Source: a virus
Reading direction: 5' to 3' (one strand)
Length of the DNA: 33,234 nucleotides
IMG/VR virus record: IMGVR_UViG_3300037673_000034
The stretch's first letter is position 1; each line of letters opens with the position of its first letter. Shown here in pieces: positions 32,888 to 33,205 of this stretch. Made by a program: the position numbers and the translations under genes. The notes beneath the pieces were generated by a model. That model made no database searches. It saw only the letters and a program-made list of their open reading frames with translations, and was not told where the DNA came from.

Positions 32888-33205
32888 ATGAAACAGAGCA
32901 AGGTTAGGACTTCTTTGTATATTGATAAGGGTTTGTTGAATAAAGCTAAACAGAACAAAATAAATTTATCAAGATTTTTAGAAGAAAAGCTCAAAGAATA
33001 TTTTGACGATGAAAAGAAATTAAATGAAGTGGATAAATATGATATTAGTTATTTTGAAGTTAAAATATTGAATGAGAGAAGAGAAAACCAAGAAAAAACT
33101 GCGGAGAGTGGTGTAGCCCGGCCAATCATACGGGACTCTCGATTCCGTGACCCGGGTTCAAATCCCGGCCGGAGCACTCTCCCCCGAATCTTAGTACGGT
33201 TTTGA
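32888..33205 (+). CDS. IntN: N-terminal part of the split integrase with RHH (CcdA-like) domain; reads through att and stops in host DNA
   Basis: VRTSLYIDKGLLNKAKQNKINLSRFLEEKL. Codon 97 ends at 33178, in frame with IntC after recombination. TTTATATA at 32859-32866. Confidence 0.85.
   Translation: MKQSKVRTSLYIDKGLLNKAKQNKINLSRFLEEKLKEYFDDEKKLNEVDKYDISYFEVKILNERRENQEKTAESGVARPIIRDSRFRDPGSNPGRSTLPRILVRF
33108..33179 (+). repeat. att site, right copy (72 bp; 5'-truncated tRNA-Glu)
   Basis: Identical to 56..127. It lacks tRNA nt 1-6, so the acceptor stem cannot form. Confidence 0.97.

Follow-up and report, generated by a model that had tools for sequence, protein, structure and literature searches.

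Integrases that carry their att site inside their own reading frame, the suicidal integrases, are known from Thermococcales and Archaeoglobales. For Archaeoglobales, where they are abundant, Badel et al. (2020, PMC7253208) listed such integrases and counted as many as five in A. profundus; they named plasmids, fuselloviruses and unclassified elements as their carriers in Thermococcales (main text). In these enzymes the att site is translated and tolerates changes of frame, and the two parts of the gene, Int(N) and Int(C) (here: IntN and IntC), evolve as separate modules (PMC7253208). Int-pT26-2 was reported to catalyze integration, excision and inversion without accessory factors; the att substrates were annealed oligonucleotides with the tRNA-Arg sequence plus 6 nt (PMC7253208). 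The characterized suicidal integrases are also reported to need no directionality factor, and in the SSV1 and SSV2 integrases the N-terminal region is needed for multimerization (PMC8371274). No naming of an RHH domain in suicidal integrases was found in the literature, including the main text of PMC7253208 and the 2021 review PMC8371274, and the main text of PMC7253208 holds no discussion of tailed proviruses.

The stretch of DNA analyzed here (33,234 nt, referred to as the window) holds a tailed provirus of 33 kb that sits in an archaeal tRNA-Glu(CTC), the single tRNA gene that ARAGORN detects here. Its head-tail virus genes encode, according to Pfam, a large terminase, a Mu-like portal, Mu F, a capsid protein and Baseplate_J; gp25-like and Dit-like proteins are encoded as well. 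The repeat search gave an exact 72-nt direct repeat that spans tRNA positions 7-76 plus 2 nt past the 3' end. The tRNA is whole at attL, and at attR its first 6 nt are missing. The attP junction of this virus gave no exact-pattern match in viral or metagenome contig collections, a search that rules out the identical sequence only. The features of the locus and their coordinates are collected in Table 1.

Other genes of the provirus may be mentioned here. A PCNA-like sliding clamp is encoded at 26470-27213 on the minus strand (PCNA_N, E 1.1e-7). A protein with a bPH_3 (bacterial PH) domain and a SHOCT tail is encoded at 31072-31665 on the plus strand, in the same cluster as the RHH-like regulator and int. 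In three related loci (L001, L027 and L032), the gene upstream of the int promoter ends similarly to the SNase/Excalibur gene of the window.

Table 1. Features of the integrase locus and of the divergent region in the window.
Feature	Position	Strand	Basis
Host tRNA-Glu(CTC), regenerated by integration at the left junction	50..125	+	ARAGORN
attL, left copy of the 72-nt repeat	56..127		Repeat search, 100% identity
IntC, continuous with att; 273 aa from ATG 172; SAM/XerA-like core-binding and tyrosine-recombinase catalytic domains	127..993	+	Pfam, XerA profile, alignment
T5 run right after the tRNA 3' end, in the first IntC codons; possible terminator	130..134	+	Sequence
CopG-type RHH regulator beside the divergent region 30581-30798	30374..30580	-	Pfam RHH_8 26.1 bits, RHH_1 21.4 bits, both above cut-off
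Second, weaker RHH-like regulator; first gene of the plus-strand cluster that ends with IntN	30799..31068	+	Pfam RHH_8 E 3.8e-4, below cut-off
SNase-like nuclease with Excalibur tail, directly upstream of int	32021..32851	+	Pfam SNase E 1.6e-21
TATA element TTTATATAAA, palindromic, 20 nt before the ATG	32859..32868	+	Sequence
IntN ORF, 105 aa (97 virus-encoded and 8 host-encoded residues), host-derived stop	32888..33205	+	ORF list and translation
RHH domain (IntN residues 5-43) with a strand, helix A (14-22) and the start of helix B	32900..33016	+	Pfam, AlphaFold2, Foldseek, VIA, PDB profiles
attR, repeat copy at the right end; encodes IntN residues 74-97	33108..33179		Repeat search and ORF; pLDDT 51-67 over residues 71-105

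The integrase gene is split over the two ends of the provirus. At the right end, codon 97 of IntN ends at 33178, and codons 98-105 (LPRILVRF) as well as the TGA at 33203-33205 lie in the host flank. At the left end, the open frame 127-993 sets in with the last base of the left repeat and reaches its first ATG, at 172, without meeting a stop. When 32888-33178 and 127-993 are joined, the resulting 1158 nt encode a protein of 385 aa with one terminal stop. This protein aligns in one BLASTP segment with P0027, an unsplit 325-aa integrase from an Archaeoglobales metagenome-assembled genome (residues 5-384 to 2-324, 44.7% identity, E 1.3e-99). A second unsplit homologue, P0100, is matched from 5-377 to 2-366 (E 6.5e-33). 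The join in frame is not due to chance, since the 385-aa protein is colinear with both. Several claims of the sequence-only reading are thereby borne out: an integrase split at att, the in-frame fusion of IntN codons 1-97 to 127-993, and the 105-aa IntN that ends at a stop of the host.

The same reading had called the part left at attL a headless recombinase. This is overstated, because IntC retains both its core-binding and its catalytic domain and has lost just the RHH and the linker. From ATG 172 onward, it matches the archaeal XerA profile over positions 3-243 of 263, and its catalytic domain is recognized by Pfam (PF00589, E 7.7e-13). In an alignment of 22 sequences, the residues R137, K164, R223, H246 and Y266 (P0002 numbering) are invariant and H221 is nearly so. 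The T-run that follows the tRNA in the window recurs in the relatives: a run of at least four T within 20 nt past the tRNA 3' end was counted at 11 of 16 related attL junctions (loci L005-L021; a raw count). At these junctions the runs lie within the first IntC codons, often those for Phe or Leu. The element may supply a terminator for the tRNA gene that it regenerates.

The N-terminus of the integrase is a CcdA/CopG-like RHH domain, as had been proposed from the sequence. IntN residues 5-43 match the Pfam family CcdA (PF07362) with an E value of 5.6e-7 and 30.3 bits (cut-off: 22.4). The profile is matched over positions 1-39 of 71 only, i.e., over its N-terminal RHH part. The AlphaFold2 model of IntN, made with an alignment of 47 sequences, has a pLDDT of 91-98 over residues 1-40. 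It is extended over residues 1-13 and forms a helix at 14-22, followed by a helix that starts at residue 27 and runs to residue 73; the att-encoded tail is of low confidence. A model of P0027 made without an alignment was uninformative (mean pLDDT 36.9). When a profile of 13 N-termini was compared to the PDB, the best meaningful matches were CcdA, Rv0298, ORF56 of pRN1, SvtR and CopG, all weak (E 0.03-0.65). All rows that Foldseek listed for the IntN model are RHH or RHH-type proteins (CopG, Arc, the RelB DNA-binding domain, ORF56, CdbA, VapB and StnY), with E values of 3-10 and none below 1. VIA gave Z scores of 2.1-2.7, and its best rows (Arc, StnY, CopG, RelB and ORF56) superimpose with an rmsd of 2.3-2.6 Å over 38-42 residues. 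Taken one by one, these structural matches are weak, with Foldseek E values above 1 and Z scores under 3, which is what a monomer of about 40 residues can be expected to give.

Between the RHH and the att-encoded part, a charged linker of about 35 residues (IntN 40-73, positions 33005-33106) is observed in the window and in P0246, the closest IntN relative (69% identity to the window IntN in the RHH). Most relatives are without this charged linker. It is predicted as the continuation of helix B and may form a coiled-coil extension. The subsequent att-encoded linker is rich in Gly, Pro, Ser and Arg and is predicted to be disordered, which fits the published translation of att in different frames (PMC7253208).

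The order of RHH, tRNA-derived linker, core-binding domain and catalytic domain recurs throughout the family and is no invention of this virus. In the unsplit P0027 gene (L001), the 3' part of a tRNA-Arg(TCG) lies inside the ORF, and ARAGORN calls no tRNA gene there. The integrated form is seen in L018, where the same kind of integrase is split at a complete tRNA-Arg(TCG). Of the 17 genome loci where an IntC homologue is present, 16 have it immediately 3' of a tRNA gene. The tRNAs targeted belong to seven amino-acid types (Arg, Thr, Lys, Gly, Leu, Gln and Ser). The IntC frame remains open back into the tRNA in 15 of these 16 loci, yielding peptides such as PGSNPGG, VRGFKSLPPH and RVQIPPPA. For five elements, the matching IntN half was found in the same genome, and its tRNA-derived peptide is that of the IntC half. 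In the 25 best loci, the tRNA T-arm is located 51-59 codons into the ORF without exception. The MKKRTSVYID subfamily, of which the window is a member, reads it in sense, and a second subfamily reads it in antisense.

The RHH is equally widespread. In a library search with P0027, the RHH pattern stands at the start of 11 or more cluster representatives (50% identity), in most of them followed by a tRNA-like segment. All 10 full-length relatives that were scanned display an N-terminal CcdA-type match, above the cut-off in seven of them. A search with IntN (P0001) alone gave no fused form longer than IntN itself, and an RHH profile was needed. This profile retrieves seven unsplit integrases (325-396 aa), one protein of 250 aa and 24 short proteins (79-122 aa); a precomputed integrase domain (PF00589 or PF16795) is present in six of the seven unsplit integrases. 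At the level of genomes, an integrase-type RHH match is present in 56 of 96 Archaeoglobi genomes, and among the 150 matches listed about six lie in frames of more than 250 aa. A related protein of the same genomes, P0241, found no match in the phage collection. With tblastn, P0027 gave distant, bacterial Xer-like matches only in the phage and plasmid collections. The earlier reading had named, as a finding that would speak against it, that fusions of an RHH to the integrase are a routine and already described feature. Routine they are, as the family shows; described they are not in the literature considered above, where the RHH is nowhere named.

A split integrase in a head-tail virus had been regarded as atypical, a view that the relatives contradict. 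Four Archaeoglobi genomes carry genes with 76-88% identity to the terminase of the window. In all four, a homologous IntC on one side and an RHH IntN on the other, 34-40 kb apart and oriented as in the window, enclose the terminase gene. By its coordinates, one of the four (G021) corresponds to Archaeoglobus profundus DSM 5631 (CP001857), where the IntC is located near 1,262.7 kb and the IntN near 1,296.1 kb. Four other Archaeoglobi genomes hold this kind of tailed provirus with its integrase split in the same manner.

One related locus has a different arrangement at its left end. The closest relative of the IntC (67% identity), at L078:567-2283 (IMGVR_UViG_3300033156_000264), is without a preceding tRNA gene. 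A 44-nt 3' fragment of tRNA-Glu lies upstream of it and, beyond this fragment, a 307-aa IntC of the antisense-reading subfamily that is encoded on the opposite strand. This looks like a tandem of two different suicidal-integrase elements within a single tRNA-Glu, the same att being translated both ways. Tandem integrations were not seen by Badel et al. (2020, PMC7253208).

The promoter of the integrase remains with IntN after integration, as the sequence-only reading had stated. The TATA element TTTATATAAA is kept upstream of 20 related IntN genes, and its spacing to the ATG suggests a leaderless mRNA or one with a very short leader, with a transcription start placed from the sequence. In the MKKRTSVYID subfamily, the promoter TTTATATAAAT is conserved together with a subsequent GGTGA-containing segment and the ATG. 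An alignment of 21 int promoters displayed no operator-like conservation besides the TATA element and the segment from GGTGA to the ATG.

From these observations, it is very probable that the provirus was integrated by a suicidal, SSV-type tyrosine integrase of the pT26-2-related kind, in which the RHH is a constitutive part and most likely serves in cis as a dimerization and DNA-binding module. The free virus would encode one protein of 385 aa, composed of the RHH, a linker and the XerA-like core-binding and catalytic domains. The linker is predicted to be helical and then disordered, its last 24 residues being the translated att that is identical to the tRNA. Placed in a linker between domains, the att would let the gene tolerate a sequence dictated by the tRNA of the host. 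Integration would then cut the gene at this linker and leave two folded modules. At attR, the RHH module (IntN) would keep the promoter and end at a stop of the host, and at attL the core-binding and catalytic domains (IntC) would come to lie behind the regenerated tRNA. For the part played by the RHH in the enzyme, we infer a role from analogy. RHH proteins are usually dimeric DNA binders, and the N-terminal region acts in multimerization in the SSV1 and SSV2 integrases. By this analogy, the RHH head most likely pairs the protomers of the full-length enzyme and may add contacts to the DNA.

Three other explanations have to be weighed against this one. The RHH ORF and the integrase could be independent genes that flank attP, with a coincidental join in frame and with IntN perhaps acting as a CcdA-type antitoxin. 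The best Pfam name for IntN is indeed CcdA, and IntC alone resembles a complete Xer-type recombinase. However, the unsplit single ORFs in several lineages contradict independent genes, the frame is open through seven different tRNA types, and the match to CcdA is confined to the profile's N-terminal part without any CcdB-like gene adjacent, so that this explanation is scarcely credible. A CcdA/CcdB toxin-antitoxin pair was rejected as a candidate on the same partial match; downstream of IntN lie att and host DNA, and upstream lies the SNase gene. It is also conceivable that the lysogen makes both halves and that these work together. In this case, IntC would be made by read-through from the tRNA, starting at ATG 172, and would excise the provirus alone or with an incoming full-length integrase; this was suggested for the pTN3/TKV4 system. 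The completeness of IntC, with its two domains and all conserved catalytic residues, and the in-frame position of ATG 172, 15 codons past att, agree with this, as do the weak in vitro activity of the SSV1 and SSV2 Int(C) and the trans-complementation of the TKV4 Int(C) (PMC8371274). On the other hand, the Met at this position is not conserved in the alignment of 22 IntC relatives, there is no evident Shine-Dalgarno-like motif before the ATG, and many IntC copies in the genomes are decayed. The T5 run after the tRNA, recurrent in the relatives, would also tend to stop read-through. Because the Met is not conserved and the T-run recurs, expression of IntC by read-through is doubtful, and cooperation of the two halves appears improbable.

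The sequence-only reading had gone further and proposed that integration itself could create a repressor or a directionality factor. Here, the IntN freed by integration and made from the retained promoter would act as a repressor in the lysogen, as an autorepressor, as a directionality factor or as a dominant-negative protein against related incoming integrases. Several observations are in line with such a role. The ORF, start codon and TATA element of IntN are whole in the window and in all 20 of the aligned related IntN genes, and a free RHH, as a dimeric DNA binder with the same specificity as the head of the enzyme, could compete with the latter. Transcription of int(N) was reported for two Sulfolobus elements, pXQ1 and XQ2 (PMC8371274). 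In addition, a remnant of about 2.8 kb (G039:C1:225348-227961, L063) keeps an open 78-aa IntN with a good, canonical promoter next to an IntC whose match falls into two pieces. Against this stand the two dedicated RHH regulators at the divergent region, to which IntN has no detectable similarity (BLASTP; hhalign probability 1%). The repeats GTTATTGTG(A/C)TGT of that region occur in the window only at 30606-30660 and are absent near att and the int promoter, where just the TATA element and the segment from GGTGA to the ATG are conserved. Furthermore, the RHH is present in every unsplit member of the family and is therefore explained by a role in the enzyme, and Int-pT26-2 was reported to need no accessory factor (PMC7253208). 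About nine of the 150 RHH matches listed carry internal stops, and among the matches listed four decayed IntC copies are without an RHH partner on the expected side; IntN is hence not obviously preserved after integration. These observations neither favor nor exclude a function of IntN in lysogens. A comparison of IntN and IntC decay is no decisive test of selection, since short RHH copies escape detection once decayed and selection also acts in episomal phases. With an RHH that is constitutive (including in Int-pT26-2), two unrelated regulators at the switch and no shared operator, the proposal of a repressor or directionality factor found no support, and a regulatory IntN of any of these kinds is considered unlikely.

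The region 30581-30798 also holds repeated CTATYGTG motifs between the two RHH regulator genes. It is likely a lysis-lysogeny switch that is built from two RHH proteins.

The reading preferred here, a suicidal integrase with a constitutive RHH head, places the provirus and its relatives in the four other Archaeoglobi genomes (including that of A. profundus DSM 5631) among the suicidal-integrase elements. Suicidal integrases with their att in the ORF were known from Thermococcales and Archaeoglobales; not found in the papers searched is the point that the IntN half is a folded RHH module and that the att lies in a linker between domains. The naming of the RHH is a modest gain in annotation. The position of the att provides a structural reason why a translated att tolerates changes of frame and the switching of targets. 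The boundaries also define clean constructs for work on IntN: the isolated RHH, an enzyme that lacks it, and the full-length protein. Over half of the 96 Archaeoglobi genomes contain short RHH fragments of the IntN type with a conserved promoter. It is conceivable, though unlikely, that such fragments are not dead pseudogenes but small DNA-binding proteins switched on by integration, which would autorepress int, lock the prophage or block the integration or excision of related incoming elements via competition or mixed dimers with the RHH head of full-length integrases. If IntN were active in lysogens, this would bear on the paradox of why suicidal integrases persist, and if it did regulate, the recombinase gene would contain a built-in sensor of the integration state.

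When compared to known systems, the N-terminal domain shares the strand-helix-helix pattern, the profile matches and the predicted fold with the RHH superfamily (the CcdA N-domain, CopG, Arc, RelB and ORF56). In contrast to these proteins, it is fused to a tyrosine recombinase in the free virus and has no toxin partner, and in this virus its helix B reaches to about residue 73. A different parallel is offered by the mycobacteriophages BPs and Brujita, where attP lies within the repressor gene and immunity depends on integration. As in these phages, integration alters the C-terminus of a small DNA-binding protein that is encoded across attP. In BPs and Brujita, however, the repressor gene is split and the integrase is separate, whereas in the window the integrase itself is split and separate RHH regulators are present at the switch. 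Integration-dependent immunity of the BPs type was therefore rejected for the window: the split gene is the integrase, and the candidate regulators are encoded elsewhere (Table 1) and have no similarity to IntN.

Lambda Int and Tn916 Int carry an arm-binding N-domain before their core-binding and catalytic domains and thus also possess an extra module at the N-terminus. They differ from the present enzyme in the fold of this module, and Int-pT26-2 is reported to act on short att oligonucleotides without accessory factors. No arm-type sites were found for the window integrase. The SSV1 and SSV2 integrases share the topology, i.e., attP in the ORF, the split into Int(N) and Int(C), and an N-terminal part for multimerization. 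They belong to another sequence family, however, and come from spindle-shaped viruses with a Sulfolobales host.

The closest system is that of the pT26-2-related integrases. Membership of the pT26-2 class was defined by a BlastP similarity of more than 25% over 60% of the protein to members of the Int-pT26-2 cluster (Badel et al., 2020). The direct alignment of the 385-aa protein to Int-pT26-2 (GU056179, t26-1p) is confined to the RHH (pairwise E 0.004). P0241 bridges the two, as 93% of its own length aligns on the pT26-2 integrase gene with 24% identity, and homologues of the window integrase are present in A. profundus. In Int-pT26-2 itself, residues 22-62 show the strand-helix-helix pattern, with a CcdA score of 15.3 bits that stays under the cut-off; this RHH-like start is followed by the tRNA-like segment GGPGGIRTRDL and then by Phage_integr_3. 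The catalytic domain of the window integrase differs from the Int-pT26-2 class in that it scores better with PF00589 than with PF16795. With the pT26-2-related integrases the window shares the attP in the int ORF, the tRNA 3' end as target, the translated att rich in Gly and Pro, the split into Int(N) and Int(C), and the many tRNA specificities, and it differs from them in its carrier, a head-tail virus.
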